32,693 nt of DNA from Bacteriovoracaceae bacterium (lineage in GTDB: Bacteria; Bdellovibrionota; Bacteriovoracia; Bacteriovoracales; Bacteriovoracaceae). The first letter of the stretch is position 1. Every line of letters begins with the position of its first letter. This document shows, one piece after another, positions 707 to 28,251 of this stretch. A program made the position numbers and the translations under genes. The notes below the pieces were generated by a model, which saw nothing but the letters and a program-made list of their open reading frames with translations, did not search any database and was not told where the DNA came from. The stretch covers positions 1 through 32,693 of the forward strand of contig JBFGZE010000028.1 of the NCBI GenBank assembly GCA_041586955.1, read 5' to 3'.

Positions 707-2874
707 TAAATCAATCTCCTAATACGCAAACTATTACTGACGACAGAAATACTACTCATCCCCATCGCAATACTTGCCAAGATAGGTGGCAACATTGGTC
801 CACCAAAAAGATAGAGCAGGCCTGCTGCAACTGGAATTAAAAGAGTATTATAAACCAAAGATAAAAAGAGGTTTTGTTTAATTATGGTCATCGTCCCGTT
901 GGCGAGGGAAAGAAAATCGATGGCACGAGACAAATCCCCCTTTACAATAGTCACATCGGAAGCATTAATCGCAACATCTGTACCAGTTCCCATGGCCAAT
1001 GATAGATCCGCCTTGGCCAAAGCAGGGGCATCATTAACTCCATCGCCTATCATGGCGACCCTCTTACCTTTATCTTGGATCATTTTAATATAATCGGCCT
1101 TTTCAAGGGGAAGAGCATTGGCAATATAATGGTCAATCCCTAATTCTTTTGCGACGGAAGAAGCAACTTGCTCGTTATCACCCGTAATAAGCCAAGTTTC
1201 AATTTTTCGATCACGTAGATCGTCGATAACCTTGCGAGCCCCCTCTTTGATTTTATCGCCAACAATAATTAATCCTTTTAACTCACCATCTTTGGCAATA
1301 TAAACCTGGGTACCAATCTGGCCAGAAACAAACTGAGGTAAAAGTTCAATTTGATAATCGGACATTAATTTAGCGTTTCCAATAACATATTGATGATTGC
1401 TCATTTGGGCAATAACGCCTTTCCCTTTAATTATCTCAAAAGTGTCTGGTTCATGGATTGTAATTTTTCTTTTTTTCGCATAATTAACGATCGCCTGCGA
1501 TAAAGGATGTTCTGAAAATGATTCGATACTCGCAATATCTCTTAGAAACTCATCAGGATCGTTATCAAAGTAAATAAAATCGAGAACAAAGGGTTTTCCC
1601 TGTGTAATTGTCCCTGTTTTATCAAAAACAATGGCATTGATATTCACCGCCTTTTCAATAACTTCACCCCCGCCTATTAGAAGTCCACGCAAGGAAGCTC
1701 TTCCTGTCGCCACAACAACTGCTGTCGGAGTGGCGAGACCGAGGGCACAGGGGCAGGCAATCACAAGTACCGCAATAAAGTTCGATACCGCATTACCCCA
1801 TTGGGGGAGTGGGCCAAAAGCAAACCAAACGCTAAAAGTAAAAATCGCAATACCAATGACAATAGGTGTAAAAACGGAACTTATTTTATCGGCATAACGT
1901 TGAATATCAGGCTTATTATTTTGCGCATTTTCAACAAAGGTTACAATTTGTGCTAAAAATGTTTCAGCTCCTACTTTCTGCGCTCTATAATCAATAACAC
2001 TCATTCCATTAATTGTACCTGCAAAAACCTTATCACCTTTGTCCTTAACAATTGGGATCGGTTCTCCAGAAATCATTGATTCATCAACTGCTGAGTACCC
2101 ATTGATAACTTTACCATCAACAGGAAATTTCTCACCAGGAAGAACGCGGATAACCGCTCCAATACCTACGTCATCAATATCCACTTCACGAGGCACACCA
2201 TCAATCAGAACCGTGGCCTTTTTTGAACTTAGCTTAAGTAATGAATTAAGTGCTTCTTTCGTTTTCTTTTTCGCCTTTTCCTCAAAGTATTGCCCTAAAT
2301 AGACAAAGGATATAATAAATCCGACGGCCTCAAAATAAACTTTTTGGGTTAGCCCGATGGACAGGGAAAAATCAGAGAACAAGGTAATAAAGCTACTATA
2401 AAGGAACGCGGCACTGGTTCCAATCCCTATTAAAGTATTCATATTCGACTGGCCAGACGTCAAAAACTTAATGGCAGCTTTTTGAAATTTAAGCCCTACC
2501 CAAATCCAAATCGGCGTGGCCAGAATCATTTGGAAAAGCCAATTTAATCGATGCCCAGGCCACCCAACAAGCGGTCCCATCGCCAATAAAAAAATAATAG
2601 AAGAAAATAAGATAGCAAGAAAGAAACGATTAAGATTATTCTCATTTTTCCCTATCGAACCTTGCCCCTCCTCGAGAAAAGAATAGCCCAAGCTTTTAAC
2701 TTCATTGCGAATATTAACTTCGACACCGGGGTCCTGAAATTCAAATTTGCCTGTCTCTGTGGCAAAATTCACATTGGCAAGGTTAACACCATCAATTTTG
2801 CGAATGGCCTTCTCAATATTGGCCGCACAGCTCGCGCAGCTCATACCTGAAATTTTCACCTGTAGAGTGCTCAT
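706..2874 (-). CDS. copA: Cu(I)-translocating P1B-type ATPase
   Basis: N-terminal GMSCASC heavy-metal-binding domain, CPCALG, DKTGT, HP, GDGVNDAPALA, and the YN and MxxSS transmembrane Cu(I) ligands. Confidence 0.96.
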   Translation of the reverse strand: MSTLQVKISGMSCASCAANIEKAIRKIDGVNLANVNFATETGKFEFQDPGVEVNIRNEVKSLGYSFLEEGQGSIGKNENNLNRFFLAILFSSIIFLLAMGPLVGWPGHRLNWLFQMILATPIWIWVGLKFQKAAIKFLTSGQSNMNTLIGIGTSAAFLYSSFITLFSDFSLSIGLTQKVYFEAVGFIISFVYLGQYFEEKAKKKTKEALNSLLKLSSKKATVLIDGVPREVDIDDVGIGAVIRVLPGEKFPVDGKVINGYSAVDESMISGEPIPIVKDKGDKVFAGTINGMSVIDYRAQKVGAETFLAQIVTFVENAQNNKPDIQRYADKISSVFTPIVIGIAIFTFSVWFAFGPLPQWGNAVSNFIAVLVIACPCALGLATPTAVVVATGRASLRGLLIGGGEVIEKAVNINAIVFDKTGTITQGKPFVLDFIYFDNDPDEFLRDIASIESFSEHPLSQAIVNYAKKRKITIHEPDTFEIIKGKGVIAQMSNHQYVIGNAKLMSDYQIELLPQFVSGQIGTQVYIAKDGELKGLIIVGDKIKEGARKVIDDLRDRKIETWLITGDNEQVASSVAKELGIDHYIANALPLEKADYIKMIQDKGKRVAMIGDGVNDAPALAKADLSLAMGTGTDVAINASDVTIVKGDLSRAIDFLSLANGTMTIIKQNLFLSLVYNTLLIPVAAGLLYLFGGPMLPPILASIAMGMSSISVVSNSLRIRRLI

Positions 2875-2875
2875 T

Positions 2876-3109
2876 TTAGACCTTTGACATTTTGGTAACA
2901 GAAAAACCTAGTTCTTCAATTTCCTTTTTGATTGTCATTGTCGAGAGTGAATTTGAAGCAGTAATTTTAACGGTCTTATCGCTTAATTCAATCTCTGTGT
3001 TCTCAATCCCATCAATATCTTTAAGCCCTGCCTCAATTTTATTAGAACAGGAACCACATTTCATACCTTCAACTTCAAATATTAAACTTTGTCGACTAGA
3101 ACTCATCAT
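2876..3109 (-). CDS. copZ: Copper chaperone (single HMA domain)
   Basis: GMKCGSC motif in a 77-aa protein that ends 1 nt before the copA start. Confidence 0.9.
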   Translation of the reverse strand: MMSSSRQSLIFEVEGMKCGSCSNKIEAGLKDIDGIENTEIELSDKTVKITASNSLSTMTIKKEIEELGFSVTKMSKV

Positions 3110-3653: not shown

Positions 3654-4364
3654 TTAACGATAGAAAACGCATCTTTGACCACTATGTCTCGCACGTTCAC
3701 AGCGTCTCCAAGCTCTTCGGCAAGCACGATTTTTAGCATCTACCGGATGCCAGTCCCTGGCACGAGCTCTAAAGCGATCGACTCGTAGGCCATGACGGCC
3801 AATTAATAAAAAGTGACAGCTTCTTGAATAGGTAAACGGTCCAATTAGATCACGACGGTGTCCTCGACGGCCAAAAAATCGGAAGAAAAAACCACCTCGA
3901 CGATGACGATGGTGAATACGATGGCCACGGCTTCCGCCTCGTCGTCCGCGATTAAAGCGCGGGCCAGGACCACCTCGTCGCCCCCGATTAAAGCGCGGGC
4001 CCGAACCACCGCGAGGGCCACGATTAATACGTGCTCCTCGACCACCACGTCCGCGCACACCTACTCTCCCTCTACCTCTACGCCGCTTATCCTTATCAAC
4101 TTCTACTTCCTTTGTAATATTGTCCTTGGCCTCTAGAGCTTGGGCCGAAAGAGGGGCAGCTTCACAAAAACCATTATAGGCGACTTCTTTTTCAAGGCAT
4201 TTATTGATGGCCAATTCACAAGCTTTCTCTAGGACTTCATCATCCTCTTGAAAAGTGGCTATAAATGAATCATCCTCATCAAACATTTCGACCTCGCACA
4301 TCGCGCCGTACGAAAGATGGACGGAGAAAATAAATGATAGAAATAATATATATAATCCTTTCAT
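3654..4364 (-). CDS. Secreted hypothetical protein with two 4-Cys domains and an Arg/Gly-rich repeat linker
   Basis: Signal peptide MKGLYILFLSFIFSVHLSYG-A, AAGGAG ribosome-binding site 7 nt before the ATG, downstream hairpin and upstream sigma-54-like motif. Confidence 0.75.
   Translation of the reverse strand: MKGLYILFLSFIFSVHLSYGAMCEVEMFDEDDSFIATFQEDDEVLEKACELAINKCLEKEVAYNGFCEAAPLSAQALEAKDNITKEVEVDKDKRRRGRGRVGVRGRGGRGARINRGPRGGSGPRFNRGRRGGPGPRFNRGRRGGSRGHRIHHRHRRGGFFFRFFGRRGHRRDLIGPFTYSRSCHFLLIGRHGLRVDRFRARARDWHPVDAKNRACRRAWRRCERARHSGQRCVFYR
3930..4035 (-). repeat. Intragenic 36-nt (12-aa) tandem repeat, about 3 copies
   Basis: cgattaaagcgcgggcc at 3949 and 3985 and cgattaa at 4021. Protein reads GARINRGPRGGS / GPRFNRGRRGGP / GPRFNRGRRGGS. 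Confidence 0.85.
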
Positions 4365-11315: not shown

Positions 11316-12608
11316 ATGAATAGTATTCTGAATAAATATCGGCGACAAAGAAAAATTACAGAGTCCCTCTGTGATCATCTTGAAATTGAAGATTATGTGG
11401 TTCAAGCGTGCCCTGATGTCAGTCCCATAAAATGGCATCTCGGCCATACATCCTGGTTTTTTGATACTTTTATATTAAGGCCATTCTCTCCCTCTTACCG
11501 GCCCTTAAACTCACAATACTCGCTCCTTTTCAATTCTTATTATAAAACCTTTGGCCCACATTGGGAGCAAAGGCAACGTGGCCATTTATCACGCCCAACA
11601 GTTAATGAGATTTTTCAATATAGAAGCTGGGTCGATAATCAAATGGTCGAACTTTTAAGCAGTGGTACACCTCGCGAAAGTTTTGAGGCCATCAAAGAAT
11701 TAGTAGAATTGGGCATCAATCACGAACAACAGCATCAAGAATTAATATTAATGGATATAAAATATAACTTCTGGGTCAATCCTTTACGTCCCCATTATGC
11801 CGAACAGCTCAATAATAAAAACGCTGGGTCCAAGAATGAGAATCATATTATTCCATCCCAGTTTTTGACAATTCTTGGAGGCATGCGCAGTGTGGGAACA
11901 AAAGATAAACAACATTTTCATTTTGATAATGAAACTCCCAAACACGAACTTTATCTCACGCCATTTAATATTCAAAATCGTCTAGTCACCAATATAGAGT
12001 ATTTAGAATTCATCAATTGTGGGGGCTATGAAGATTTCAAATATTGGCATACCGATGCATGGGATATGATTCAATCGACTAAACTCAATTGTCCTTTATA
12101 TTGGGAAAATAGAGAGGGTGATTGGTACCAATTCACTCTTTACGGAATGAAAAAATTGGCTATGAATGAGCCTGTCTCTCATATCAGCTACTACGAGGCC
12201 CATGCCTACGCCCATTGGGCAGGGAAACGATTACCAACAGAAAATGAATGGGAAGTTGCCGCCAAAGAATTTGGCCTCTACCCTTCTAAAACTGACCATG
12301 TTTTAGACCGACATCAATATCATCCGAGAGAATATACCCCGCGCTCTACAAGTAATGGCATGGTTGATACCTTCGGCAACCTTTGGGAATGGACGGCAAG
12401 TGCCTACCTTCCCTACCCTGGTTATAAAAGGCGCCAAAATGCCTTAGGCGAATACAATAGCAAATTCATGGATGGCCAATATGTTCTCAAGGGAGGATCA
12501 TTTGCCACCTCAATTGACCATATTCGCAGTACCTATCGCAATTTTTATTATCCTGACAAACAATGGGCATTTACGGGTTTAAGGTTAGCGGAGGATATAG
12601 ATGAATGA
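11316..12608 (+). CDS. egtB: Ergothioneine biosynthesis sulfoxide synthase
   Basis: DinB-like domain (SPIKWHLGHTSWFF, HEQQHQE iron ligands) plus FGE-sulfatase domain (RLPTENEWE, GNLWEWT, VLKGGS). Overlaps egtD. Confidence 0.93.
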   Translation: MNSILNKYRRQRKITESLCDHLEIEDYVVQACPDVSPIKWHLGHTSWFFDTFILRPFSPSYRPLNSQYSLLFNSYYKTFGPHWEQRQRGHLSRPTVNEIFQYRSWVDNQMVELLSSGTPRESFEAIKELVELGINHEQQHQELILMDIKYNFWVNPLRPHYAEQLNNKNAGSKNENHIIPSQFLTILGGMRSVGTKDKQHFHFDNETPKHELYLTPFNIQNRLVTNIEYLEFINCGGYEDFKYWHTDAWDMIQSTKLNCPLYWENREGDWYQFTLYGMKKLAMNEPVSHISYYEAHAYAHWAGKRLPTENEWEVAAKEFGLYPSKTDHVLDRHQYHPREYTPRSTSNGMVDTFGNLWEWTASAYLPYPGYKRRQNALGEYNSKFMDGQYVLKGGSFATSIDHIRSTYRNFYYPDKQWAFTGLRLAEDIDE

Positions 12609-13599
12609 GTATATTTCTTTAAATAAACATCTACATAATCAAGATATATTTTTACGGGATCAATTTGCTCTCGACATTTTAATGGGATTCTCCTCTCCTA
12701 CAAAATTCATTAGTTCAAAGTACTTTTATGATGATCTTGGAAGCCGGTTTTTCAATCAAATTGCCGATAGCCCGGAATATTATCTTACGGCCTGTGAGTT
12801 TGAGATACTACGCTCATATAAGCAAGACATTGCGAAACAATTAGGTCCAGGGGAGTTTAATTTAATAGAGTTAGGTGCTGGGGATGGAAGAAAAACAAAA
12901 GTCCTCATTGAGGAATTTCTTCGAAGTGGTCATAAGTTTGAATACCTTCCCATTGATATTTCTGAATCGGCCATTTTCTACCTCTCTGAAGAATTTGGTA
13001 CCGAACATCAAGATTTATCATTCTTCGGAATTATTTCGGAATATGAAGAGGGATTAAGATGGATCAAAGAAAATCGTGACGGTCGAAGCTTTGTCTGCTT
13101 TCTTGGATCGAATATCGGTAATTTTGATCATGTTAACTCTCTTGCCTTCTTACGCTCTATTTGGAATACACTAAAAGATGGTGACCTCATGCTTATTGGA
13201 TTCGATTTAAAAAAAGATATTGATATTCTACTCAGTGCCTACAACGATATCGAGGGGATTACTAAAGAATTTAATTTGAATCTTTTAACACGTATCAATA
13301 AAGAATTGGGCGGAGAATTTGACCTCTCTAAGTTTGATCACTTTGGAACCTATAATCCAAAGGTCGGAGCAATGGAAAGCTATCTTATATCGCTCAGTGA
13401 TCAAACCGTTTATATTAAAGAATTACAAAAACATTTTCATTTCCAAGAATATGAGCCCATTCATTTAGAATATTCTTATAAATATCTTCAGTCTGACGTT
13501 GAAACGTTGGCCAAAAGTACTGGTTTTAAAGTCATCGATAATTTATATGACTCACAAAAGTATTTTTGTGATTCACTTTGGCAGGTTATCAAACATTAA
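12601..13599 (+). CDS. egtD: L-histidine N-alpha-methyltransferase
   Basis: SKYFYDDLGS, PEYYLT, IELGAGDGRKT, FLGSNIGNF, AYND..GIT..FNLN and EYSYKY. Confidence 0.93.
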   Translation: MNEYISLNKHLHNQDIFLRDQFALDILMGFSSPTKFISSKYFYDDLGSRFFNQIADSPEYYLTACEFEILRSYKQDIAKQLGPGEFNLIELGAGDGRKTKVLIEEFLRSGHKFEYLPIDISESAIFYLSEEFGTEHQDLSFFGIISEYEEGLRWIKENRDGRSFVCFLGSNIGNFDHVNSLAFLRSIWNTLKDGDLMLIGFDLKKDIDILLSAYNDIEGITKEFNLNLLTRINKELGGEFDLSKFDHFGTYNPKVGAMESYLISLSDQTVYIKELQKHFHFQEYEPIHLEYSYKYLQSDVETLAKSTGFKVIDNLYDSQKYFCDSLWQVIKH

Positions 13600-13668: not shown

Positions 13669-16600
13669 TTATATAGCTTTTCCTTTTTGTAAAAATGAGT
13701 AAAGACACGGAATGAATAGCAGAGTAATGGTGGTGGAAAATGCCATTCCCCAGCCCATAACAAGCATCATCTCGGCCAACATGGAATCATATCCGGCAAG
13801 TCCATAGGCGGTAGGCAAAATGGCCACCACCGTGGTAATCGTCGTCACAACAACAGGGCGAAGGCGAGTCGACGCAGCTCTAGCAAGACCTTCTAAATAA
13901 TGCTCCCCAGGTGCTAATATATTTTTTTCAATTTTATCAATCATGATGATGGAATCATTGATCACCACTCCAATCATGCCAAGCGCCCCTACTGCCGCAA
14001 AAAAGCCATAAACACTCATTCCATGGGTGATAAGAACGATAATAGCACCGGCCAAACCAAAGGGTATTATTGATACAACTAGCAGTGGAGTAACCAAAGA
14101 ATTAAACATGATCACTAGAATTAGGTAAATTAAGATGATGACCAAAAGCAACGAATTGCGAAAATTGGAACGGGAGTCTCGTGAATCTTCAATCTCTCCT
14201 GTAAATCTCAAAATAGCACTCGGAAATTCTTTGTTAATTTTGGGAAAAATATTTTGTTCTAAGTCTTCCGCTATTTCGATGGGTGTTTTTTTTGTTTCAG
14301 GCCGCAGGTCGGCAAAAACCATCGTTGTTCTTTTATTATTAGTTCTTGCAATATTAGCCGGACGCATCACCTCTTCCATGGTAATGAATTTGTTTAAAAG
14401 AATCAGTTGTCCATTTTTATTAAGAACTTTAAGCTTTAAAAGACCTTTTAAATTTTTCTTATTCTCATCGGGTACCGTTAATCGCAACTCCACCTCTTCA
14501 TCACCTTTATTAATGGTATAAAGAGTTGATCCTTCCACAAAGGTGCGTAATGCCGTGGTCACAGATGAAGGATTGATATTAAGTCGTACCAATTTCGGTT
14601 GGTCTATTTTAAAAAGGTACTCCTTTTTAATGAGAGGCCTTTCCAGCTCGACATTATCAAGAGCTGGATTCTTTTCCATATGGTTCTTAATCATTTGAGT
14701 AATCTTACTGCGAATTTGGTCATTATTTTCTTGAACTTGTAATTCGATAGCACTTCCAGATCCACGCCCCCAACGACTTTTTAAAATCTTAACTTCTGTA
14801 AGGCCATTAATCTCTTTGCTCTTTTTTTCCCATTTCTCGCGCAATACCTTTAAAGATACATCTCTTTGATCAGCGGGAATAAGCTCTACTCTTATTCCGG
14901 CTTCATTTTCTTTAACTTCACCACCTCGGCGACTTTGACCGATTCTACTTCTCACGGCAACAATGCGACCGGGACCTTCATCCAGAAACATTTGTTCTAG
15001 GGGTGCAATGGCCTGGGCAGTTTCTAAACGTGACGCTCCTTGCTCGGCAAATGCCTTGACGTATATTTCTTTACTCTCTTCACGCGGGAACATAACAAAT
15101 TTCATCTTAGTGGCAAAAACATAACCACAACCAATAAGAACCGCGATGAAACCACAGATAATGATCAAGCGATGACGTAATAGGATCGCAAGTGTCTTGG
15201 CATAACTCGCCTCCCATTTATAAAACCAATTTCGATGGCCTCTCACCAGGTTATCTAAAATTGGTGTTTTTCCAGAAAGATGTGCCGGTAGAATAAAAAG
15301 AGATTCAATTAAACTTCCAAGTAACATAAATATCACCATCAAAGGGATATAAGATACGAATTTACCAAAATGACCTTCAAAAAAAAGAAGAGGAACAAAA
15401 GCGACACAGGTAGTAATAATACTCGCGAGAATGGGACGAAATACTTCTTGCGTGCCATCTATTGCCGCGGCAATTAATGTTTTTCCCTGGTTCACATGCC
15501 GAGAGATATTCTCGGCAATAATAATGGCATCATCAACGACGATTCCCATTACTATAATAATCCCGGCCAAAGTCATATTGTTGACAGTGTAGCCTGCTAA
15601 AAGAGCACATATAATGGTAAAAGCAAGTGAAAATGGAATTCCCATCGCTACCCAAAATCCTGATTTAATATCGAGAAAAATCATTAAAACAATAAGAATA
15701 AGTCCAAAACCAATTAACCCATTCCAATGAATAATAGATAGTCGGTTGGTAACATCAAATGATTCATCATCCATCAAATGTACTTTTATTGGCGAATCGA
15801 CATTCATTTGATTAAAGTGATTCACGAATCGAACAACCGCATCTCGTGCCGCTAAGATATCTGTCGAAACAGTTTTTTTGACATTCAATATTACAGCTTC
15901 ATGGCCATTAATTTTATGAATGGCATTAGCTCTTTCAAAACCATTGGAGATATCGGCTATTTTACTGAGCTTTAATAGAGGACCTTCATAGGAACCTTTT
16001 AAGGCGAGATCGTTAAGTGATTCCACAGTATCGAGTTCATGCAAGGCGGTGACCTTTGACTCTCCACGATCATTTAATGAACCTATGGGCGATCTAATAT
16101 GATTGGAGCGGATTTGGTTATAAATTTCCGTTATGGAGATTTCAAAGTTATCAAGCTCCCTCGGTCTTAAAAGAACCTGTAGTTCTGGCGCGAGGTAACC
16201 AGATTTTGAAACACTACTCACTTGCGGAAGAGATAATATTTGATTTTCAAAAGTAAGGGCGTACTGTTGCAGCTCTCTACGCCCACCAGCATCTAAAAAT
16301 TGATGTTCTCGATGCACTAAGGCGATATCAATAATCGCCTTTTCGCTCGAGCGAAACTGGTGAAATGTCGGAATTTTACGCACCTCTGTGGGTAAATTAG
16401 TTCGTAAAACTGCATCCTTTATATCTTGAATAACCTGCTGCTTGTTGGGTGCATTGGAATCGATAAAAATACGAAAGGAGCTACTCCCAAGACTTGAGGT
16501 GCTTTGTACCTCTTCAAGTCCGCTGACCGACTTTAGTTGTTCCTCAATGGGCTTAGTAATAAATAATTCGACGTCCGCAGCAGGGGCACCAGGATAATGA

Positions 16601-16752
16601 GTCACGACCCGGATCCAGTCCATGGCAAACTCTGGCATTTCTTCTTTTCCTATTCGCCACCATGCCAAGATGGAAAGCATAATAATGCCGAAAAAGAGAA
16701 CGTTTGTTAATAAGTGTTTTGTCGCAAAGTAGCGGATAAGTTTATTCATCAT
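13669..16752 (-). CDS. RND transporter permease subunit (AcrB/AcrD/AcrF family)
   Basis: 1027 aa with YPGA...VE..ITKPIE, TM4 GIVVDDAIIIAENI, TM10 GVVINDSI and RLRPVVVTT. Confidence 0.93.
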   Translation of the reverse strand: MMNKLIRYFATKHLLTNVLFFGIIMLSILAWWRIGKEEMPEFAMDWIRVVTHYPGAPAADVELFITKPIEEQLKSVSGLEEVQSTSSLGSSSFRIFIDSNAPNKQQVIQDIKDAVLRTNLPTEVRKIPTFHQFRSSEKAIIDIALVHREHQFLDAGGRRELQQYALTFENQILSLPQVSSVSKSGYLAPELQVLLRPRELDNFEISITEIYNQIRSNHIRSPIGSLNDRGESKVTALHELDTVESLNDLALKGSYEGPLLKLSKIADISNGFERANAIHKINGHEAVILNVKKTVSTDILAARDAVVRFVNHFNQMNVDSPIKVHLMDDESFDVTNRLSIIHWNGLIGFGLILIVLMIFLDIKSGFWVAMGIPFSLAFTIICALLAGYTVNNMTLAGIIIVMGIVVDDAIIIAENISRHVNQGKTLIAAAIDGTQEVFRPILASIITTCVAFVPLLFFEGHFGKFVSYIPLMVIFMLLGSLIESLFILPAHLSGKTPILDNLVRGHRNWFYKWEASYAKTLAILLRHRLIIICGFIAVLIGCGYVFATKMKFVMFPREESKEIYVKAFAEQGASRLETAQAIAPLEQMFLDEGPGRIVAVRSRIGQSRRGGEVKENEAGIRVELIPADQRDVSLKVLREKWEKKSKEINGLTEVKILKSRWGRGSGSAIELQVQENNDQIRSKITQMIKNHMEKNPALDNVELERPLIKKEYLFKIDQPKLVRLNINPSSVTTALRTFVEGSTLYTINKGDEEVELRLTVPDENKKNLKGLLKLKVLNKNGQLILLNKFITMEEVMRPANIARTNNKRTTMVFADLRPETKKTPIEIAEDLEQNIFPKINKEFPSAILRFTGEIEDSRDSRSNFRNSLLLVIILIYLILVIMFNSLVTPLLVVSIIPFGLAGAIIVLITHGMSVYGFFAAVGALGMIGVVINDSIIMIDKIEKNILAPGEHYLEGLARAASTRLRPVVVTTITTVVAILPTAYGLAGYDSMLAEMMLVMGWGMAFSTTITLLFIPCLYSFLQKGKAI

Positions 16753-16807: not shown

Positions 16808-18259
16808 CTATAGAGATGTTAGTCTTTTTAGTTGACCAGACTTTTGCAGAAACCGGATAATAAAACGTTCGAGCGATATTTGTGATTTTTTATAATCAAT
16901 ATCTGTTTTTAACACTTCTTCATATTGAGTATTATAATCGTAAACAGATAAACTTCCCTGTTGTAGCTTCTTTTCATAAAAGCCAAGCTTCTCTTTAAGG
17001 AGACCGACCATCTTTTTATAGTTCATGACGATTTGCATTTGTTTTTTAATTTTTGCAACACCTTCTTTCAAATCAATTTCTTGCTCGAAGCGCGTTTTTT
17101 GTAACAATAATTTCTTTTGTTTCCAAAGAGCTTCCTTCATTAAACGTGACGATTTGGCCGCATAATTATGAACCGCTCGCTCCATAGTGAGTCCATAATT
17201 GGTTGTGGGAAATTGCCCCTCCCATACTTCTTTTTGCGCTAAACTATAGGTTTCTCGAACTCCGGCAAGTTTATAACTAGCACTCAAATCCATAGAGGGA
17301 AAGGAATCTCCTTTGGCCCAGGAAAATTCCCGCTTTGCTAAATTGACCTCTTCCATTCTTTTTTTCACTTCTGGGGAGTTATCGATTAGTTCTTTAAGGT
17401 CCCCCAGGCCTTTATCAATTTTTTTCCAATCTGAAACAAAGCCAAATTCTTTATCATATTTCCAAGGGTATTCTGTTTTTTGAAATAATTCTTGAGAAAT
17501 ATCTGCTGTAATTTTTTGAAATTTAATTTTTTGGTTTTCAAGCTTTTCTTGCGCTTTAAACAAATTAATTTGAGCATCGTTTTTTTGTATCAGAGATGCC
17601 TTTCCAAGAGAGAATTTCTTGACCATTAATTGAAATTTTTTTTCACCATTAATATAGGCCTGCTTTTTTAGATCCAATTGAAAAAGAGCATCCAATCCAT
17701 CGAGGTATTTTTCTATCAGTTTCACAATTAATTTACTTTGATCAATTTCGCTCTTCAATTGTCCCGTCCTGTCCTTCACAATGGCCTTATCATACTTTTT
17801 AGAGAAACGACCCCAATAAAAAAGATCTCTTAAGTCTTGCTCTAAGCTAAAGGTCAAAGATGGCTCGAAGGTTTTTTCAATACTACGAAATGTCGAGTTG
17901 GAATTGATAATATCAAGGCCATAAGGGACGCGAATAGTTGTTCCTGAGTAAAAGGACTTCGACATCGTTAGTCCATAACTTTGAGTTTTAGCAATAACTG
18001 AAGATGCGCCCCCGGCCCCGTCAAGAGACGAGCTACTGGGAGTGTTCGCTTTTGTATACCCTGCTTCTAAGCTGACATTAATATCAAATAATTCTGAGGC
18101 GCTAAGAACCTCTGAGCGACTGATATCAAGATCTAATTTCTTTTCTTGAAGCCCAAGGTTATTGCGACCAACGAGATCAAAAAAGACCTTTTTTGAGATA
18201 ATAAGCTCTTTTCCCAGAATACCCGAGAAAAACAAACAGAAAACACCAATAATATTCAT
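16808..18259 (-). CDS. TolC family outer membrane channel (paralogue 1)
   Basis: Two-fold repeat of helix / beta-hairpin / helix, with FPSMDLSASY and GKAS / GSLS turn motifs. The likely start is ATG 18259 (MNIIGVFCLFFSGILG signal peptide), not 18376. Confidence 0.8.
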   Translation of the reverse strand: MNIIGVFCLFFSGILGKELIISKKVFFDLVGRNNLGLQEKKLDLDISRSEVLSASELFDINVSLEAGYTKANTPSSSSLDGAGGASSVIAKTQSYGLTMSKSFYSGTTIRVPYGLDIINSNSTFRSIEKTFEPSLTFSLEQDLRDLFYWGRFSKKYDKAIVKDRTGQLKSEIDQSKLIVKLIEKYLDGLDALFQLDLKKQAYINGEKKFQLMVKKFSLGKASLIQKNDAQINLFKAQEKLENQKIKFQKITADISQELFQKTEYPWKYDKEFGFVSDWKKIDKGLGDLKELIDNSPEVKKRMEEVNLAKREFSWAKGDSFPSMDLSASYKLAGVRETYSLAQKEVWEGQFPTTNYGLTMERAVHNYAAKSSRLMKEALWKQKKLLLQKTRFEQEIDLKEGVAKIKKQMQIVMNYKKMVGLLKEKLGFYEKKLQQGSLSVYDYNTQYEEVLKTDIDYKKSQISLERFIIRFLQKSGQLKRLTSL

Positions 18260-18411
18260 AAGGCTACCTAGATCAGTTTTTAATATTCCTATTATCCTTC
18301 CATTAAAGTTCCTGCTCAAGGTAGAAATAACTGCGAAGCGCCCAAAAAACTCCCTTTTGAGGGAAAAAAAGATCATAAAAATCTAGTGAATTCCGACAAG
18401 AAACTATCATT

Positions 18412-20502
18412 ATGACAAATAAAAACTATCGAAAATACCCCGCTTTGCGGGATGACCTTAAGATATCTAAGATGAAGACTTCTGGCTCGATTCATTATGT
18501 GGTCAAAGACCCATTAAAAGAGCAATATTATCGCTTTAGTGAAGAAGAATGGCTGGTTATAGACTATTTCAGGGGATCAAAAACTCTAGAAGAGATAATG
18601 GCCCAGTTTAATTCAGACCATCAAGATATGGAAATCGACCTAGAGTCCGTTGAAGGCTATTGGAATCACTTGGATTCAATCAATATTCTACAAAAATCTC
18701 AAAAAGAAATGAATGTCATGCTCGTAGAGAAGATGAAAGAGATGCGCCAAAGTCAACTCCTGGCCAAAAAAGGAAGTCTCTTTTATAAACGTTTCCCGAT
18801 AATTGATCCCGACAAATTATTTGATAAGATCATTCCCTATATTGGATGGATTTGGAGCCTCCCTTTTTTTATCTTTTCATTTTCAATAATGATTACCGCT
18901 GTCATCATTATTTTAACCCATTGGACTGAATTCAATCAGGGTGTTTACGAAATCTTCAGCTTTTCAGAAATGTCAGCAGCTCATTTAATTACATTATGGG
19001 TTGTTATCTATGGAACAATTGCCCTGCACGAAGTTGGTCACGGTTTAACATGCAAATACTATGGTGGAGAAGTCCATGAAATAGGTTTTTTACTGCTCTT
19101 TTTTCAGCCTTGCCTATATTGTAACGTTAATGATGCCTGGCTATTTGATAAAAAGTGGAAACAAATATTGGTCACGCTGGCCGGTGGTTATATCGAATTC
19201 TTTATTGGTTCTATTTGCGCAATAATTTGGCTCATTACAAGTCCAAATACATTCATTAATGTCATCAGTATGCAAATCATGACTATTTGCTCGCTTTCAA
19301 CCGTATGCTTTAATTTTAATCCAATGATGAAGCTCGATGGCTATTACCTTTTATCAGACCTAGTCGAAGTCCCCAACCTTAAGGATGATTCGCTGGCGTA
19401 TTTAAAACACACTGTCGCTACTAAAATATTTCGAATGCCTGGCGAAAAATTCTATGCCACCAAAAGAGAAAAGCGTGTTTATCTTGTCTATGGAGTATGT
19501 AGCTTTATTTATATGACACTTTTATTGACAGGCCTTGTCGCCATGGCCAAAGGTATATTAGTCGATAGTTTTCACGAAATCGGTATTCTAATCACAGGTT
19601 TTATAGCCTATAAAATATTTGGTGGCCATGTCACAAAAAGTGGGTCTTTTATGCTGAAATTCTTTATCCAAAAAAGAAAATTCTTTAAATCCCCCAAATT
19701 TAAATTGGCCTTTGCAACAGCGATGGTGGGCCTAGTTATAACTCTCATTTTACCCATCCATTTTAAGCTTTATGGAAAATGTTTTTTAAATCCGCAAGCA
19801 ACCATTATAATGAGAACGATTGTCGACGGCCAAATCGAGAAGTTCTTTCTTAATGATGGCGAAATGATCAAATCGAGAGAAAATCTCTTTAAAATTAAAA
19901 ATGAAACAGTACCAATTAATCGCAAGATGGCCTCAACAGAGGTGAAGAAGCAGGAGTTAATGTTAAGAAAAACGCTTGTCCAAAATAAACGAAAATACCA
20001 AGAAGTAAAAAAGGAATTATTGTCTAAACAAATGACCCTTAAAGAACGAATTGCTGAAGAGACGGCATTAATCTACCGCTCACCAGAAATCTCGGGCCTA
20101 AATATGTTCTCTTGCCCTGATATCTATCAAAAGCTTGGAAGTTTTATTAACAAAGGTGATGAAATCTGCTCTATTCAAAAGATTGATGCCATGAAAACAA
20201 TTATTGAAATTAATGAAGCGCAAATAAGGTTTCTCCGAGCTGACCAAAAGGTAATTTTTAAATTATCATCCAACCCTGTTAAAAGTTATACTGGTAAAAT
20301 CAGCGAAATTCTACCTACCGGTAAGAACGATCCCAAAAACCCCCAGCGGAAAATATATAATGCGGTTCTAGAAATCAATAATCCAGGAGAATTACGCCCA
20401 GGAATGGAAGGCGTAGCAAAAGTTTATGGCATAGAAATGAGCATCTTTAAATATTTAATAGCAAAACTAACATCAACGTTAAGACTAGATTTATTTTATT
20501 AG
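18412..20502 (+). CDS. Fusion of a PqqD/RRE-like domain, an M50 (site-2) metalloprotease and a HlyD-type membrane fusion domain
   Basis: N-terminal P.LRDDL...YVVKDP...YYRF...GSKTLEEI, then HEVGH, LAGG and NFNPMMKLDGYY in a multi-TM region, and a C-terminal DGQIEKFFLNDG...LRPGMEG adaptor domain. Confidence 0.88.
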   Translation: MTNKNYRKYPALRDDLKISKMKTSGSIHYVVKDPLKEQYYRFSEEEWLVIDYFRGSKTLEEIMAQFNSDHQDMEIDLESVEGYWNHLDSINILQKSQKEMNVMLVEKMKEMRQSQLLAKKGSLFYKRFPIIDPDKLFDKIIPYIGWIWSLPFFIFSFSIMITAVIIILTHWTEFNQGVYEIFSFSEMSAAHLITLWVVIYGTIALHEVGHGLTCKYYGGEVHEIGFLLLFFQPCLYCNVNDAWLFDKKWKQILVTLAGGYIEFFIGSICAIIWLITSPNTFINVISMQIMTICSLSTVCFNFNPMMKLDGYYLLSDLVEVPNLKDDSLAYLKHTVATKIFRMPGEKFYATKREKRVYLVYGVCSFIYMTLLLTGLVAMAKGILVDSFHEIGILITGFIAYKIFGGHVTKSGSFMLKFFIQKRKFFKSPKFKLAFATAMVGLVITLILPIHFKLYGKCFLNPQATIIMRTIVDGQIEKFFLNDGEMIKSRENLFKIKNETVPINRKMASTEVKKQELMLRKTLVQNKRKYQEVKKELLSKQMTLKERIAEETALIYRSPEISGLNMFSCPDIYQKLGSFINKGDEICSIQKIDAMKTIIEINEAQIRFLRADQKVIFKLSSNPVKSYTGKISEILPTGKNDPKNPQRKIYNAVLEINNPGELRPGMEGVAKVYGIEMSIFKYLIAKLTSTLRLDLFY

Positions 20503-25242: not shown

Positions 25243-28200
25243 TTAACTAGCTTGCTGATACGTACCGTCAACTTCTTCCCCTGCCGGGTGTCCACCGTCA
25301 TGATCTAAGAAGTCAGCTGACTCTGAAGAGATCACGAAAGAACCGTCATCGAAGTATTGTGTATCTTCAGGAAGGTCAATGGAAAATTGTCCTTCAGGGC
25401 CAATACTGATCGGTTCAGGTGCCATTTCATTTAAGGCGGCATTAGAGACATGCAACGAATGTCCCTCCTCATTATACTCTACGCCCTCAGGAATATGCGC
25501 ATGAAGAGTTCCTTCTGCGTCAATATGATACTCTATATCCTGTGGCATATCAGTCAGCTCATAAGAGCCGGCCGGGATATCAATAGTTCCCAATTCTGCA
25601 TTAAATGTAGCATCTTCAGGAATCTTAATATCAGCAGTTCCATCGGCATTCAAAGTAAAGTCTTCAGGAATCAAATCGCCACCCAATTCTTGCATGGCCA
25701 TATCTGCACTCATCTCAACTGTACCTGTGGCAGGATCAACATTAATTCCTTCAGGAGGAGTAATGGTAACAGATCCATCTGGGTTATCATTGACCCATTC
25801 TGGACCTTGCTCAACATAATCCATTCCAGGGTTTTCAATAAAATCGGCCGAACACTCAGGAATATTGGCGCCACCATCATCAAAATAATGCGTGTCATGC
25901 GGCAGATCAACTATAACAGAACCGTCATACTCCATAGTAATGGCATCAGGAGTCATTGCATTGGTCCAATAATGATCAAAATGAACACTACCTTCCTCAG
26001 CATTAAAATCCATCCCCTCTTGAAGATTGATACTAATAGTACCATCATCGTTAAGAGTCGCATCCATTTCAGCTGGAATTTCATCCATATGCATCTCCCC
26101 TGCAGGGAAAGTCAATGAATTAGAGGCAGCATCAAATGCCGTTCCTGCTGGAACCTGGGCGGTAATCGTCCCATCCTCATGAAGTGTTATATCATCAGGA
26201 ATATATTCTTCAAAATGCTCATTAACAAATTCGCTGTTCATTTCCATTTGACCGGCTTCAGCGTTAAACTCAAGTCCCTCTTGTGGAACAATGGCAACTG
26301 AACCATCTGGATTAACATTAACGAAGTCTGGGCCTTCAGTTACATACTCAGGAGCAGGGTTCTCAAGAAAGTCCGCTTGGTACTCAGGAACAGTAAATGA
26401 ACCATCATCATGAAATTGAGTGTCTTGAGGAAGATCAACCACAAGGTTACCTTCCGCTGTCACTTCAATAGGATCAGGTGTCAATTCATTAGTCCAATAA
26501 TTATCAAAGTGAACTTGACCAGCATCACCATCATAATTCATACCATCTTGAAGTGTGATCGTAATTGTACCATCAGCATTCACTTCAGGGTTAAAGTTTT
26601 CAGGAACCTCTGCCACATTCATTTCACCTTCTGGGAAGATTATAGCATTGGCTTCAGTGTCATATTGAGTTCCCTCTGGAAGATCGACATTCATCGTCCC
26701 GTCTGCATTGAAATGAATTTCTTCAGGCACGGGAATATGCTCGTCAATCATTTCATTGGGAATTGTCGCTTCACCAGCTTCTGCGTTAACTTCGATTCCT
26801 TCAGGAGGAGTAAAAGTATACTCACCCTCTGGGCCTACTTCTGAAAACTCAACATCATGAACAAAGTCAGGTTGCTCCGCTTCAATAAAGTCAACATGGT
26901 CGGCCGGAACGGTGAAAGAACCATCGTCAAAATACTCTGTTCCCTCTGGAAGAGCAATATTCACATTCCCCTCTGCGGTGATTTGCACGCTGTCGGGGGT
27001 AATTTCATTGGTCCAGTAATTATCCATATGAACAGAACCCGTATCCGGATTAAAATCCATCCCCTCTTGTAGCATAACTGTGGTTGTACCATCTGGGTTA
27101 ATATGGGCATCAACACCCTCAGGAACTTCATCAAGATTAATTTCACCTTCTGGCAAAACAACACCATTAATATCAGCATCGTATTGGGCCCCCTCAGGAA
27201 GAGGAATCTCAGAAGTACCATCGGCATTAATTTGTAAATCAGTTTGCTCTGAAAATGTTTCATTAAAAACTTCAGCATCCATGGTGGCAATTCCACCATC
27301 AACTTCAATTCCCTCTGGTGGTTCAAAAGTCACAGCACCATCTGGAGCAGTTTCAGTGAACTCAAGATCATTGATTATTTCTGGAGCTGGATTATCCATT
27401 TGACCTGCGGCCTCAGCAGAAATTTGGATTTGACCATCGTTATATTCAACACCATCTTGTGGTAATTGTACTTCAACACTACCGTCTAGGGAGATTTCGA
27501 CGTTTTCAGGAGTTATTTCATTCGCCCAATAATTGTCGACTTCAACTGACATATTTTCCATGTCAACTTCTATCCCCTGATCGGGAAGATTGACCATAAT
27601 AGACCCATCAGCATTTGGATAAGCTTCTAGTTCATTGGGAACTTCTTCTAAATTAATTTCCCCTTCAGGAAACATTAATTGATTGGAGGCCTCTAAGTAT
27701 TGAGTCCCTTCAGGCAAAGGCATTTCCATCCCCCCCTCTGGAGTAATCTCAACACCTTCTGGAAGTGGTAATTCTTCATTGGCCACCTCAATCGGAAAGT
27801 TGGCGGTTCCAGCATCAGGGTCAACAGTGACACCCTCTGGAGGTGTTGCCGAAAAAGATCCATCTGCTTGCGCCTCAACCCAATCCGGCTCAGACCAACC
27901 TTCGTGCTGGCCCATATCGCCTTCAGGAGCGTCATTATGAAACTCGTCAACTTCTTCTGATAATGTTTCATCTTGTTGCTCATACTCAGATTCAGGGGCG
28001 TCTTGTTCAAACATTTCACCCTGATGGGCCTGTGCCTCATCCAAGTATTGTCCTTCTTGGCCTTCAGGAGCTTGATCAAAAGACTCAGTTGAAGTTTGTT
28101 GAATTTCTTCCTGACCAGCTTGATCAGTGGTATCAGCATCAACGGCATCAACCATACCAGGATCAACCAGGCCGCCGCCGACCATTCCTGGTGCAATACG

Positions 28201-28251
28201 ATCTTCTAATTTCTTCGACTGAATTTTTTTCATAGATTTTTTCTTTGTCAT
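25243..28251 (-). CDS. Large hyper-acidic repeat protein with a basic KKLEDRIAP leader; putative exported cargo
   Basis: AAGGGAG ribosome-binding site, 1002-aa ORF with five ~172-176-aa repeats, its own terminator, and no hydrophobic signal peptide. Confidence 0.85.
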   Translation of the reverse strand: MTKKKSMKKIQSKKLEDRIAPGMVGGGLVDPGMVDAVDADTTDQAGQEEIQQTSTESFDQAPEGQEGQYLDEAQAHQGEMFEQDAPESEYEQQDETLSEEVDEFHNDAPEGDMGQHEGWSEPDWVEAQADGSFSATPPEGVTVDPDAGTANFPIEVANEELPLPEGVEITPEGGMEMPLPEGTQYLEASNQLMFPEGEINLEEVPNELEAYPNADGSIMVNLPDQGIEVDMENMSVEVDNYWANEITPENVEISLDGSVEVQLPQDGVEYNDGQIQISAEAAGQMDNPAPEIINDLEFTETAPDGAVTFEPPEGIEVDGGIATMDAEVFNETFSEQTDLQINADGTSEIPLPEGAQYDADINGVVLPEGEINLDEVPEGVDAHINPDGTTTVMLQEGMDFNPDTGSVHMDNYWTNEITPDSVQITAEGNVNIALPEGTEYFDDGSFTVPADHVDFIEAEQPDFVHDVEFSEVGPEGEYTFTPPEGIEVNAEAGEATIPNEMIDEHIPVPEEIHFNADGTMNVDLPEGTQYDTEANAIIFPEGEMNVAEVPENFNPEVNADGTITITLQDGMNYDGDAGQVHFDNYWTNELTPDPIEVTAEGNLVVDLPQDTQFHDDGSFTVPEYQADFLENPAPEYVTEGPDFVNVNPDGSVAIVPQEGLEFNAEAGQMEMNSEFVNEHFEEYIPDDITLHEDGTITAQVPAGTAFDAASNSLTFPAGEMHMDEIPAEMDATLNDDGTISINLQEGMDFNAEEGSVHFDHYWTNAMTPDAITMEYDGSVIVDLPHDTHYFDDGGANIPECSADFIENPGMDYVEQGPEWVNDNPDGSVTITPPEGINVDPATGTVEMSADMAMQELGGDLIPEDFTLNADGTADIKIPEDATFNAELGTIDIPAGSYELTDMPQDIEYHIDAEGTLHAHIPEGVEYNEEGHSLHVSNAALNEMAPEPISIGPEGQFSIDLPEDTQYFDDGSFVISSESADFLDHDGGHPAGEEVDGTYQQAS

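Follow-up and report, generated by a model that had tools for sequence, protein, structure and literature searches.

One gene in the window (the whole 32,693-nucleotide stretch of DNA analyzed here) encodes a protein of three parts: a PqqD/RRE winged helix, a seven-helix M50 site-2 protease, and a MacA/MexA-like HlyD adaptor (Table 1). On balance, we favor the view that the product of this fusion gene processes and exports proteins under the guidance of a leader. A first reading made from the DNA letters and their translations (the sequence-only reading) had proposed this anatomy of RRE, intact M50 protease, and periplasmic adaptor in a single polypeptide, and it was borne out by structural models and by Pfam and NCBIfam. 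The full-length AlphaFold2 model reached a pLDDT of 85.1. Sequence comparison shows homology of residues 1-400 to the daptide leader peptidase MpaP, so the fusion of an RRE to a site-2 protease is already known. What is new here is the C-terminal fusion to an adaptor together with its gene context, both of which appear to be undescribed. In the open literature that we searched, we found no paper in which a site-2 protease was paired with HlyD. The supplements of the daptide papers may list non-daptide RRE-peptidase fusions.

Table 1. Features of the fusion gene and its neighbors (positions are those of the window; residue numbers are those of the encoded protein)
Feature	Position	Strand	Remarks
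RRE - M50 site-2 protease - HlyD adaptor fusion gene	18412..20502	+	ATG start, 696 aa
Cytoplasmic PqqD-like RiPP recognition element (predicted), residues about 10-90	18439..18681	+	AlphaFold2 model, Foldseek
Long linker helix from RRE to membrane domain, residues 97-120	18700..18771	+	both models
M50 (site-2 protease) membrane domain, residues 133-426	18808..19689	+	six of seven predicted helices
HEVGH zinc-binding/catalytic motif, residues 206-210	19027..19041	+	H206, E207, H210; membrane helix 2
NPMMKLDG motif, residues 303-310	19318..19341	+	third zinc ligand Asp309
Seventh membrane helix, residues about 428-452	19693..19767	+	hydropathy peak 2.14 at 428-455
Periplasmic HlyD/MFP adaptor domain (predicted), residues 448-677	19753..20442	+	Pfam, NCBIfam, Foldseek
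Conserved C-terminal helix ending R-x-D-L-F/W	20443..20502	+	helix 678-690 in model
Short second HlyD-family adaptor, 246 aa	20511..21251	+	8 nt downstream of fusion gene
GAF-GAF-TM-HlyD protein, 851 aa	21224..23779	-	third adaptor; sensor domains cytoplasmic
Candidate TolC-like outer-membrane protein, 464 aa	23795..25189	-	weak Pfam OEP, E 0.075
TolC-family outer-membrane protein, 522 aa	16808..18376	-	Pfam OEP E 3.3e-16; divergent to fusion gene
Candidate cargo with N-terminal leader, extremely acidic repeat protein, 1002 aa	25243..28251	-	
Cargo leader, residues 1-21, MTKKKSMKKIQSKKLEDRIAP	28189..28251	-	cleavage predicted after P21

The membrane domain carries the combination that defines the M50 family, an HExxH motif in a membrane helix with NPxxxxDG downstream. 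In the full-length model, HEVGH lies inside helix 189-216 and NPMMKLDG at the end of helix 281-301. Both had been picked out as intact zinc ligands by the sequence-only reading, which had their coordinates right. In an alignment of 31 full-length relatives (27-58% identity), residues H206, E207, H210, N301, N303, P304, K307, D309, and G310 were invariant in 31 of 31 sequences, and, given this conservation, the motifs are no chance matches. The Pfam model Peptidase_M50 (PF02163) matched residues 196-277 at 31.1 bits, above its gathering cut-off of 27.2. Residues 191-318 matched the site-2 protease MjS2P (3b4r_A) with an E value of 0.016, and the NCBIfam daptide_HExxH model covered residues 30-398 (E 7.7e-48). 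The protein has seven hydrophobic segments, and the loops rich in K/R alternate between the two sides of the membrane, from which a topology with the N terminus inside and the C terminus outside is predicted. A K/R-rich loop (418-430) precedes the seventh helix, modeled at 428-445, and it is this helix that would place the adaptor in the periplasm. In the predicted layout, the RRE would lie in the cytoplasm, the zinc site near the cytoplasmic face, and the HlyD adaptor in the periplasm.

We modeled the N-terminal domain separately with AlphaFold2, using residues 1-125 and 39 aligned N-domains. The model had a mean pLDDT of 85.3, with 10-residue block means of 92-94 across residues 11-90. It shows three antiparallel strands (17-23, 26-33, and 38-43) followed by three helices (44-50, 59-69, and 77-89), which is the arrangement of a PqqD-like winged helix and the same pattern of strands and helices that had been described from the sequence. 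The top Foldseek matches in the PDB were RREs that bind leader peptides: leader-bound TbiB1, lasso B1, PqqD, TruD, CteB, and LynD (E 6.5e-3 to 0.16; probability 0.97-1.00). TM-scores were 0.72-0.76 on standalone RREs of about 85 residues and, when normalized on the target, 0.62-0.76 for TbiB1, lasso B1, and PqqD. Among ESM Atlas clusters with names, those nearest to the N-domain were PqqD at 0.94. By sequence alone, this kinship is subject to a caveat. Residues 1-130 had no match to Pfam PqqD (PF05402) at an E value of 10 or less, only chance-level matches being returned, and when the N-domain profile was run against PDB sequences, PqqD (5sxy) came third of six with a nonsignificant E value of 1.3. 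The window's N-domain misses the PF05402 gathering score of 23.4 bits, whereas nine of nine scanned family homologues, preselected as already bearing the PF05402 label, pass it with 23.7-32.5 bits; these nine also match the N-domain profile of the window's own family (E 8e-28 to 8e-15). Co-folding of RRE residues 1-96 with the cargo leader returned a score of 0.03 and "no answer," a result that speaks neither way on binding. Behind the RRE, the linker helix starts at residue 97 in both models and runs to 122 in that of the N-domain and to 120 in the full-length one, and it has a conserved consensus, LLxKS..E.N..L.EK.KE.RK, in the alignment of 31 relatives.

Residues 448-677 belong to the HlyD/membrane-fusion-protein family both by fold and by Pfam models that exceeded their cut-offs, in agreement with the periplasmic adaptor domain first read from the sequence. 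HlyD_3 matched residues 573-663 (E 1.7e-10; 42 bits against a cut-off of 22.2) and HlyD_D23 matched residues 453-665 (E 3.3e-9; 36.8 bits against 30), while TIGR01730 matched the domain with an E value of 1.3e-12. The domain comprises a lipoyl-like domain, a hairpin of helices 499-524 and 526-551, and a beta-barrel. Foldseek matched its fold to MacA, MexA, and AcrA with E values from 1e-12 to 1e-9, at TM-scores on the target of at most 0.71. The C-terminal tail has the consensus LRxDLF in the alignment of 31 relatives, with D693 nearly invariant.

To characterize the distribution of the fusion, we collected relatives and the loci that surround them. Among 8000 scored candidates, 1738 were related to the fusion protein at an E value of 1e-3 or less. 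With residues 1-430 as the query, we retrieved 2652 clusters at 50% identity (E of 1e-30 or less), and 570 loci were found in GTDB species genomes. The closest relatives are Bdellovibrionota and Oligoflexia metagenome-assembled genomes, and the host of the fusion gene is probably Gram-negative. Isolates of Thalassomonas and Algibacillus are also among the relatives. Across phyla, the conserved core is a triad consisting of the GAF-HlyD protein, the short HlyD protein, and the RRE-M50-HlyD fusion, to which TolC-like proteins are added in the closest relatives. The GAF-HlyD protein matched Pfam GAF (E 1.9e-31) as well as HlyD_D23 and HlyD_3; its homologues occur in 41 of 80 related loci and, in many phyla far removed from one another, lie directly 5' of the fusion gene. 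The short adaptor scored 109 bits against TIGR01730 RND_mfp (cut-off, 94.9), had BLAST homologues in 17 of the 80 loci, and sits directly 3' of the fusion gene in loci L001, L002, and L004-L008. In L001-L006 and L008, homologues of the 522-residue outer-membrane protein are likewise placed divergently to the fusion gene. The 464-residue candidate is conserved in five related loci; in L006, both outer-membrane proteins of the window match one and the same open reading frame (ORF).

We searched these loci for a motor. To our knowledge, all characterized HlyD-type adaptors work with an energized inner-membrane transporter of the ABC, RND, or MFS type. Within the window, no ORF combined a Walker A motif with LSGGQ, the signature of an ABC-type ATPase. 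Such ORFs were present in 5 of the 80 related loci, none of them closer than 4.5 kb to the fusion gene, and a single ABC_tran cluster appeared in four loci; we therefore rejected an ABC ATPase as a conserved partner. An RND pump gene (13669-16752) does occur beside the fusion gene. It forms an operon with the 522-residue outer-membrane protein gene, this operon has no adaptor gene of its own, and it faces the fusion gene over about 36 nt. RND homologues were found in only one of the 80 related loci besides the window, so the pump is not a general feature and stays as a local candidate only. One of the adaptors could in fact belong with the adjacent operon.

These observations bear on the possibility that the fusion protein is a leader peptidase only, like MpaP, and that its HlyD domain and the two other adaptors serve an ordinary energized pump encoded elsewhere or the adjacent RND pump. 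In that case, export would be type I secretion or tripartite efflux of the conventional kind, and the apparent lack of an ATPase or energy module would be an artefact of a search confined to neighboring genes. Both the operon that lacks an adaptor gene and the habitual pairing of HlyD-type adaptors with ABC, RND, or MFS transporters are what this explanation would predict. It also agrees with the daptide clusters, with which multi-component ABC transporters co-occur (PMC10036551). The rarity of RND and ABC-like genes around the fusion argues against it, as does the fact that the three adaptors, the outer-membrane proteins, and a leader-bearing ORF travel together. Furthermore, we know of no RND pump that moves proteins of 1000 residues. 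We regard the peptidase-only explanation as rather unlikely, at a level that still merits attention.

The leader-bearing ORF of the window encodes the 1002-residue acidic protein. It has a net charge of -226, and eight of its nine K/R residues fall within the first 21 positions. Repeats of about 172 residues are marked by DNYW[AT]NE at positions 239, 410, 583, and 759; they are visible in the protein only, and Tandem Repeats Finder detected no DNA repeats in the gene. The C terminus reads ...QQAS, the translation contains no hydrophobic signal sequence, and homologues of the protein occur in nine related loci. Pfam and NCBIfam scans of this protein and of seven other leader-bearing ORFs returned no family over its cut-off. 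Its leader is basic and ends in KKLEDRIAP, and L15, E16, R18, I19, A20, and P21 were invariant in 16 of 16 aligned leaders. Judged by this leader and its neighborhood, the acidic protein is a likely substrate of the fusion protein.

Using a hidden Markov model (HMM) of the leader motif, we searched six frames of the 80 related loci (1.28 Mb) and recovered 32 ORFs at E values below 1e-3 in 24 loci; the best reversed-sequence decoy had an E value of 0.18. None of the 32 ORFs was farther than 3.7 kb from the fusion gene, although the flanks extended to 10 kb, and 30 were on the same strand. The cargo gene of the window is 4.7 kb from the fusion gene and on the opposite strand. The model found no ORF in the other 56 of the 80 loci, nor in 28 of the 41 loci that have at least 5 kb on both sides. 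All proteins recovered by the leader profile were unnamed or annotated as "hypothetical," except for one labeled "flagellar basal body rod protein FlgF." Cargos with LE[DE]RIAP range in length from a few residues to about 2000, and many have a Gly-Gly pair after the motif. In other phyla, the same system is linked to short peptides with cores of 4-60 residues, including Gemmatimonadota peptides with only 4-11 residues after the motif. A loose regular expression for variant leaders was also applied to the 56 HMM-negative loci; its 68 matches were mostly noise, and the plausible ones, which were too few to count, comprised four N-terminal variants (in L022, L030, L048, and L072). Variant N-terminal LE-D/E-R motifs were seen on large Planctomycetota proteins, and they may be addresses for the same machine.

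Site-2 proteases have a second well-known role, which the same loci allow us to weigh. M50 proteases classically cleave anti-sigma factors, and the fusion protein could be a signaling enzyme of regulated intramembrane proteolysis, in which the winged helix and the GAF domains regulate while HlyD oligomerizes or senses the envelope. The leader-bearing proteins would then be unrelated neighbors or released signals instead of exported cargo. Of the 80 loci, 14 contain sigma-54 activators and 5 contain histidine kinases, which is compatible with such a role, as are the GAF sensor domains fused to the partner adaptor and the very short, pheromone-like peptides of Gemmatimonadota. Yet no anti-sigma/sigma pair was conserved among the 80 loci, the cargo leader offers no membrane helix for intramembrane cleavage, and the best matches of the N-domain are leader-binding RREs and not DNA-binding proteins. 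The leader motif also parallels a RiPP leader that ends at its cleavage site. We consider a signaling function very improbable.

The cargo itself suggests one more arrangement. Processing of the acidic protein by the fusion protein could take place in the cytoplasm or inner membrane, after which the adaptors could anchor or assemble this repeat protein into an envelope matrix, either periplasmic or on the cell surface, instead of secreting it. The repeats and extreme negative charge would suit such a matrix, the weak adhesin-like matches of the protein (pAdhesive_11 and aRib, both below cut-off) lean the same way, and the presence of two different TolC-like genes in the module fits as well. 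However, the short cores found in other phyla do not suit a structural role, and the cargo bears no resemblance to any known anchor. This arrangement seems to us quite improbable.

We return to the reading that we favor, in which leader binding, cleavage after Ala-Pro, and export would be coupled. The RRE would bind the LE[DE]RIAP leader at the N terminus of the neighboring 1002-residue protein, and the M50 site would cut directly after Ala-Pro (P21|G22), which would remove the only basic stretch of the cargo. The fused adaptor, the short HlyD protein, and the GAF-HlyD protein would build a periplasmic duct, and this duct would join one or both of the TolC-like proteins, through which the mature cargo would leave the cell. 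Power for this route might come from the proton gradient, from an unlinked pump, or, in the window, from the adjacent RND pump. Against this reading stands the observation that no energized inner-membrane transporter is conserved alongside the adaptors. Nor is any M50 protease known to form a channel for a protein of 1000 residues.

We also put forward, as a doubtful but far-reaching extension, that the RRE-M50-HlyD fusion, the GAF-HlyD protein, the short HlyD protein, and the TolC-like proteins together constitute a hitherto unrecognized, ATPase-independent secretion system of diderm bacteria. Such a system would be spread over thousands of lineages in many phyla, where it would read the LE[DE]RIAP leader, clip it in the membrane, and export cargo ranging from four-residue peptides to acidic proteins of 2000 residues. 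RREs and M50 leader peptidases are known from Gram-positive bacteria, where they belong to natural-product pathways for small peptides. In the fusion, this module for recognition and cutting is joined to a Gram-negative export adaptor and is linked to both very large acidic proteins and tiny peptides. The family and its context suggest a widespread, undescribed mode of cutting and exporting without a linked ATP motor. If true, this would be a new leader-addressed export route, and it would raise the sharp question of its power source. LE[DE]RIAP would become a simple sequence tag with which to predict substrates in metagenomes, and RRE-guided recognition would reach beyond RiPPs to whole proteins.

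Of the known systems, daptide biosynthesis is the closest to the N-terminal part of the fusion protein. It was a fusion of this kind, RRE plus site-2 protease (MpaP), that led to the discovery of daptide clusters, and the daptide leader motif reported there, ELExMEAP, ends at position -1 with Pro at -1 (PMC10036551). If the cut follows Pro, (K)LE[DE]RIAP agrees with this motif at -7 (L), -6 (E), -2 (A), and -1 (P). Processing by MpaB/C requires L(-7) and M(-4), an effect ascribed to the RRE of MpaB, and in the passages considered, cleavage by MpaP is stated rather than assayed (PMC10036551). The NCBIfam model for MpaP/DapP (NF041824, daptide_HExxH) shares the N-terminal architecture, with homology over residues 30-398, and the fusion protein scores 163.5 bits, below the curated cut-off of 300. 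By this measure, it is a homologue of the daptide protease and not an equivalog. It differs from MpaP in about 270 additional residues, which form a membrane helix and the HlyD adaptor. None of the Pfam assignments in the window corresponded to the daptide tailoring genes (oxidative decarboxylase, aminotransferase, and methyltransferase). Unlike daptides, the cargo ends in Ser instead of Thr and is 1002 residues long instead of a short peptide; in contrast to daptide clusters and their hosts, no ABC transporter is linked and the host is probably Gram-negative.

EpeP/YydH/LiaK (NF058609) is likewise an M50 protease for a ribosomal peptide, and EpeP is thought to export its peptide as well as to cleave it (PMC10885120). 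This model matched residues 134-323 of the fusion protein (E 4.7e-14). The score of 52.6 was far under the cut-off of 225, and the match included neither the RRE nor the adaptor region. The EpeP/YydH/LiaK systems are firmicute. At the other end of the protein, MacA, MexA, and AcrA have the adaptor fold in common with residues 448-677, but the hairpin here is short, each of its two helices having about 25 residues, and the adaptor is fused behind a seven-helix protease in a conserved module that lacks a cognate pump.

The proposed route can also be compared with ABC-driven secretion. Type I secretion consists of HlyB-HlyD-TolC and relies on a C-terminal signal. Both involve a large, very acidic repeat protein that lacks a Sec signal, along with adaptors of the HlyD family and outer-membrane proteins of the TolC family. 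The signal here is instead N-terminal and probably cleaved, there are three different adaptors, two of which carry cytoplasmic domains (RRE-M50 and GAF), and the ABC component that defines type I secretion is absent from the window and unconserved in related loci.

In peptidase-containing ABC transporters (PCATs) of the colicin V CvaAB-TolC type, the transporter has HlyD and TolC partners. The sequence-only reading had proposed that the fusion protein is a functional analogue of such a transporter without an ATPase. This idea gained from the lack of a conserved nearby ABC ATPase and from the conserved leader on a neighboring protein, and it lost in novelty to the RRE-protease fusion already known. 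We, too, infer such an analogy. Neither C39 nor ABC_tran, the domains that define PCATs, was found in the fusion protein or its neighbors, which makes it at most an analogue. The Gly-Gly pair behind the motif of many cargos is a point of likeness to these transporters. The protease here is an M50 metalloprotease instead of a C39 cysteine protease, the leader would be read by an RRE, and the adaptor is fused to the protease. What the two would have in common is their logic: an N-terminal leader is read and cut by an in-built protease, and HlyD together with a TolC-like channel completes the route, as we propose here.

Both zinc-site motifs of an M50 site-2 protease lie in the translated fusion ORF exactly where the sequence-only reading had placed them. 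Its claim that protease and adaptor share one polypeptide also held, as Peptidase_M50 (residues 196 to 277; 31.1 bits against a cut-off of 27.2), HlyD_D23 (453 to 665), and HlyD_3 (573 to 663) all exceeded their Pfam cut-offs. Across 31 aligned full-length relatives (27 to 58% identity), H206, E207, H210, N301, N303, P304, K307, D309, and G310 were invariant, which argues that the catalytic set is under selection and that the HExxH is not there by chance. In a full-length structure model (pLDDT 85.1), the RRE was followed by a linker helix (97 to 120), a helical membrane domain (133 to 426), a helix (428 to 445), and an adaptor (448 to 677) with hairpin helices 499 to 524 and 526 to 551. The adaptor fold resembled MacA, MexA, AcrA, and EmrA (structure comparison, E = 1e-12 to 1e-9). 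The modeled protein closes with a conserved C-terminal helix. Hydropathy indicated seven membrane segments, with K/R-rich loops at 1 to 147, 302 to 350, and 418 to 430 and K/R-free loops at 170 to 188, 276 to 282, and 386 to 392. From this distribution we infer an N-in, C-out topology, which would put the RRE and zinc site on the cytoplasmic side and the adaptor in the periplasm. In the alignment of full-length relatives, the terminal helix carries an R-x-D-L-[FW] tail (20443 to 20499, + strand, in the window) with a nearly invariant D693; we know of no counterpart in classical adaptors.

The first 130 residues matched nothing meaningful in Pfam by sequence alone. A profile built from 39 N-domains reached PqqD (5sxy) among PDB sequences only at E = 1.3. 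Structure comparison (Foldseek) gave TM-scores of 0.72 to 0.76 on standalone RREs of ~85 residues. An AlphaFold2 model from the 39-sequence alignment (pLDDT 92 to 94 as 10-residue block means, residues 11 to 90) bore out the predicted pattern of three strands (17 to 23, 26 to 33, and 38 to 43) and three helices (44 to 50, 59 to 69, and 77 to 89), which run into a long helix (97 to 122). Its top PDB matches were TbiB1 with leader (5v1u, 5v1v), lasso B1 with leader (6jx3), TigE, PqqD, TruD, CteB, LynD, and ThcOx (E = 6.5e-3 to 0.16; probability, 0.93 to 1.00); RREs are present in most of these proteins. Nine shorter homologues, picked for a prior PF05402 label, all scored above the Pfam PqqD cut-off over residues ~25 to 100 and matched the N-domain profile of the window's family at E = 8e-28 to 8e-15. 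As a lead only, PqqD clusters made up 17 of 30 matches to residues 1 to 100 in a language-model look-alike search (top score, 0.94). Thus, the model, the Foldseek matches, and the PF05402 homologues agree on a predicted RRE.

Judged by sequence searches, the fusion architecture is common. Among 8000 scored candidates, 1738 proteins were relatives at E ≤ 1e-3, annotated as "putative peptide zinc metalloprotease protein" or "HlyD family efflux transporter periplasmic adaptor subunit," and a pattern search of GTDB genomes gave 599 matches, of which 570 encode a relative. Residues 1 to 430 retrieved 11,094 clusters (50% identity) at E ≤ 1e-3 and 2652 at E ≤ 1e-30; of the best 150, 125 were fusion-sized (at least 575 aa). 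We surveyed the gene neighborhoods of 80 loci from other genomes. The nine closest (L001 to L009) came from Bdellovibrionota or Oligoflexia metagenome-assembled genomes, apart from L009, which is from a Planctomycetota one. In most of these, a TolC-like gene diverges from the fusion gene and a short HlyD gene lies directly downstream; genes for a GAF-HlyD protein, another TolC-like protein, and a large acidic protein are also there. L003 is a truncated locus, and L009 lacks both TolC-like genes. In Gammaproteobacteria, Magnetococcales, Acidobacteriota, Gemmatimonadota, and others, the GAF-HlyD gene, often with the short HlyD gene, is immediately upstream of the fusion gene. Clustering over 79 of the loci plus the window gathered 203 HlyD-domain ORFs into one cluster, and no other widely conserved family emerged from the 80 loci (sigma-54 activators in 14, a TPR protein in 12). 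Over the whole set, sigma-54 activators and histidine kinases were often neighbors.

The translated candidate cargo has no hydrophobic signal sequence at its start. Its homologues in nine loci (831 to 2079 aa) have a basic N-terminal stretch of varying length and share KLE[DE]RIAP. In the six-frame translation of the 80 loci (1.28 Mb), a leader-motif HMM matched 32 ORFs in 24 loci at E < 1e-3, the best reversed-sequence decoy reaching E = 0.18; none of the 32 is farther than 3.7 kb from a fusion gene, and 30 share its strand. The other 56 loci, chiefly Planctomycetota and Zixibacteria, gave no match. In 16 aligned leaders, L15, E16, R18, I19, A20, and P21 (window cargo numbering) were invariant, and GG follows the motif in most. 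The carriers vary widely in size and include acidic repeat proteins of 605 to 2079 aa, arrays of 54- to 112-residue stop-to-stop ORFs with G/N/P/S-rich cores in Acidobacteriota (four copies in L028), and Gemmatimonadota peptides with only 4 to 11 residues past the motif. The last, of ~45 to 60 aa, take the form M..K..VRIDLT..QK..[VI]K..TGKD...IELT..ELE[DE]RIAP and end in, e.g., VRIT, LKVL, or RKKFV; cleavage after AP would release a very short peptide. Planctomycetota loci lacked the canonical leader and showed a few N-terminal variants (LEDRNAPG, LEDRSLPG, LESREVP, and LEERKLLAP); two belong to proteins whose stop-to-stop lengths are 1061 and 1428 aa. These variants bring to mind the LE.LE.R.LL motif that opens many planctomycete secreted proteins. 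Against 5.8 billion proteins, the leader profile found 45 at E ≤ 1e-3, all unnamed or "hypothetical" save one labeled "flagellar basal body rod protein FlgF," and no Pfam or NCBIfam model covered the leader in the cargo and leader-bearing ORFs scanned.

Homology to the daptide system suggests that the RRE would bind the LE[DE]RIAP leader, whose proline would then mark the point after which the M50 site cuts (P21|G22 in the window cargo). The cargo has ~172-residue repeats and a net charge of −226, with eight of its nine K/R within residues 1 to 21, and such a cut would strip nearly all positive charge. The predicted 981-residue mature cargo (25243 to 28188, − strand) contains one Lys, no Arg, one Cys, and 23.5% Asp plus Glu. 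The fused adaptor, two further adaptors, TolC-like proteins, and lack of a Sec signal together suggest that cutting is coupled to envelope passage. The weakest point is inner-membrane crossing, for which the analysis turned up no channel or motor and any energy source is putative, and we know of no adaptors that work alone. For these reasons, the main rival is an ordinary pump as partner, either unlinked or, in the window, the adaptor-less OMP-RND operon that adjoins the fusion gene. Among the 80 loci, RND homologues turned up in just one, so the OMP-RND pairing with these adaptors may be specific to the window organism. The only adaptors near that operon are the module's three HlyD-domain genes. 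As annotated, the divergent OMP and fusion genes begin only ~36 nt apart (18376 to 18412). Translation of the OMP probably begins at a later Met, because a signal-like segment comes after MNIIGVF; the promoter region between the two genes is thus likely longer than these starts suggest.

Elsewhere in the window, one adjacent gene pair fits the EgtB/EgtD pattern of ergothioneine synthesis. Directly upstream in the copper-type module, a 77-aa ORF has a CxxC-containing start resembling that of the ATPase's HMA domain. A 236-aa ORF (3654 to 4364, − strand) whose start resembles a signal peptide and whose middle is repetitive and rich in Arg and Gly (RGRGGRGARINRGPRGG...) matched no Pfam family.

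Coordinates of features in the window and, where a locus handle (L) is given, in loci from other genomes
Feature	Position	Strand	Description
Fusion ORF	18412-20502	+	ATG start, 696 aa
HEVGH	19027-19041 (residues 206-210)	+	M50 motif
NPMMKLDG	19318-19341 (residues 303-310)	+	M50 motif
TolC-family gene, then RND permease	16808-18376, 13669-16752	-	Operon without adaptor gene
Adjacent gene pair	11316-13599	+	DinB_2 + FGE-sulfatase (430 aa); Methyltransf_33, histidine-specific methyltransferase (332 aa); Pfam
Copper-type module	422-3109	-	Metal-sensitive repressor (Trns_repr_metal); P-type ATPase with HMA domain
Candidate cargo	25243-28251	-	1002 aa, N-terminus MTKKKSMKKIQSKKLEDRIAPGMVGGGLVDPG
Gemmatimonadota leader peptides	L035 6254-6802; L047 6137-6913; L039 7764-8072; L066 4605-4763; L068 6736-6903; L071 3916-4101		
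Planctomycetota variant leaders	L022 1-360; L030 1570-4752; L048 20432-21028; L072 4659-8942	-; +; +; -	

The RRE-protease half of the fusion protein belongs to a known kind. The NCBIfam daptide intramembrane metalloprotease model matched residues 30 to 398 (E = 7.7e-48), at 163.5 bits, below its equivalog cut-off of 300, and the YydH/LiaK epipeptide protease model matched at E = 4.7e-14. In the open-access literature searched, no account emerged of the adaptor fusion, of a module with three adaptors, of the LE[DE]RIAP leader, or of protein-sized cargos. The fusion of an RRE to a site-2 protease is itself already known, since the daptide paper describes it (PMC10036551). There, an N-terminal ELExMEAP motif is common to daptide precursors and occupies positions −8 to −1 of MpaA, whose L(−7) and M(−4) are essential for MpaB/C processing, which the authors credit to MpaB's RRE; cleavage by MpaP appears as a statement in the Discussion (PMC10036551). 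EpeP, another M50 protease, is thought to cleave and export its own peptide, according to a review (PMC10885120). The systems differ in their transport genes: ABC transporters co-occur with daptide clusters (PMC10036551), whereas ABC-type ATPases occur in 5 of the 80 fusion loci, always at a distance of at least 4.5 kb, and in the window not at all.
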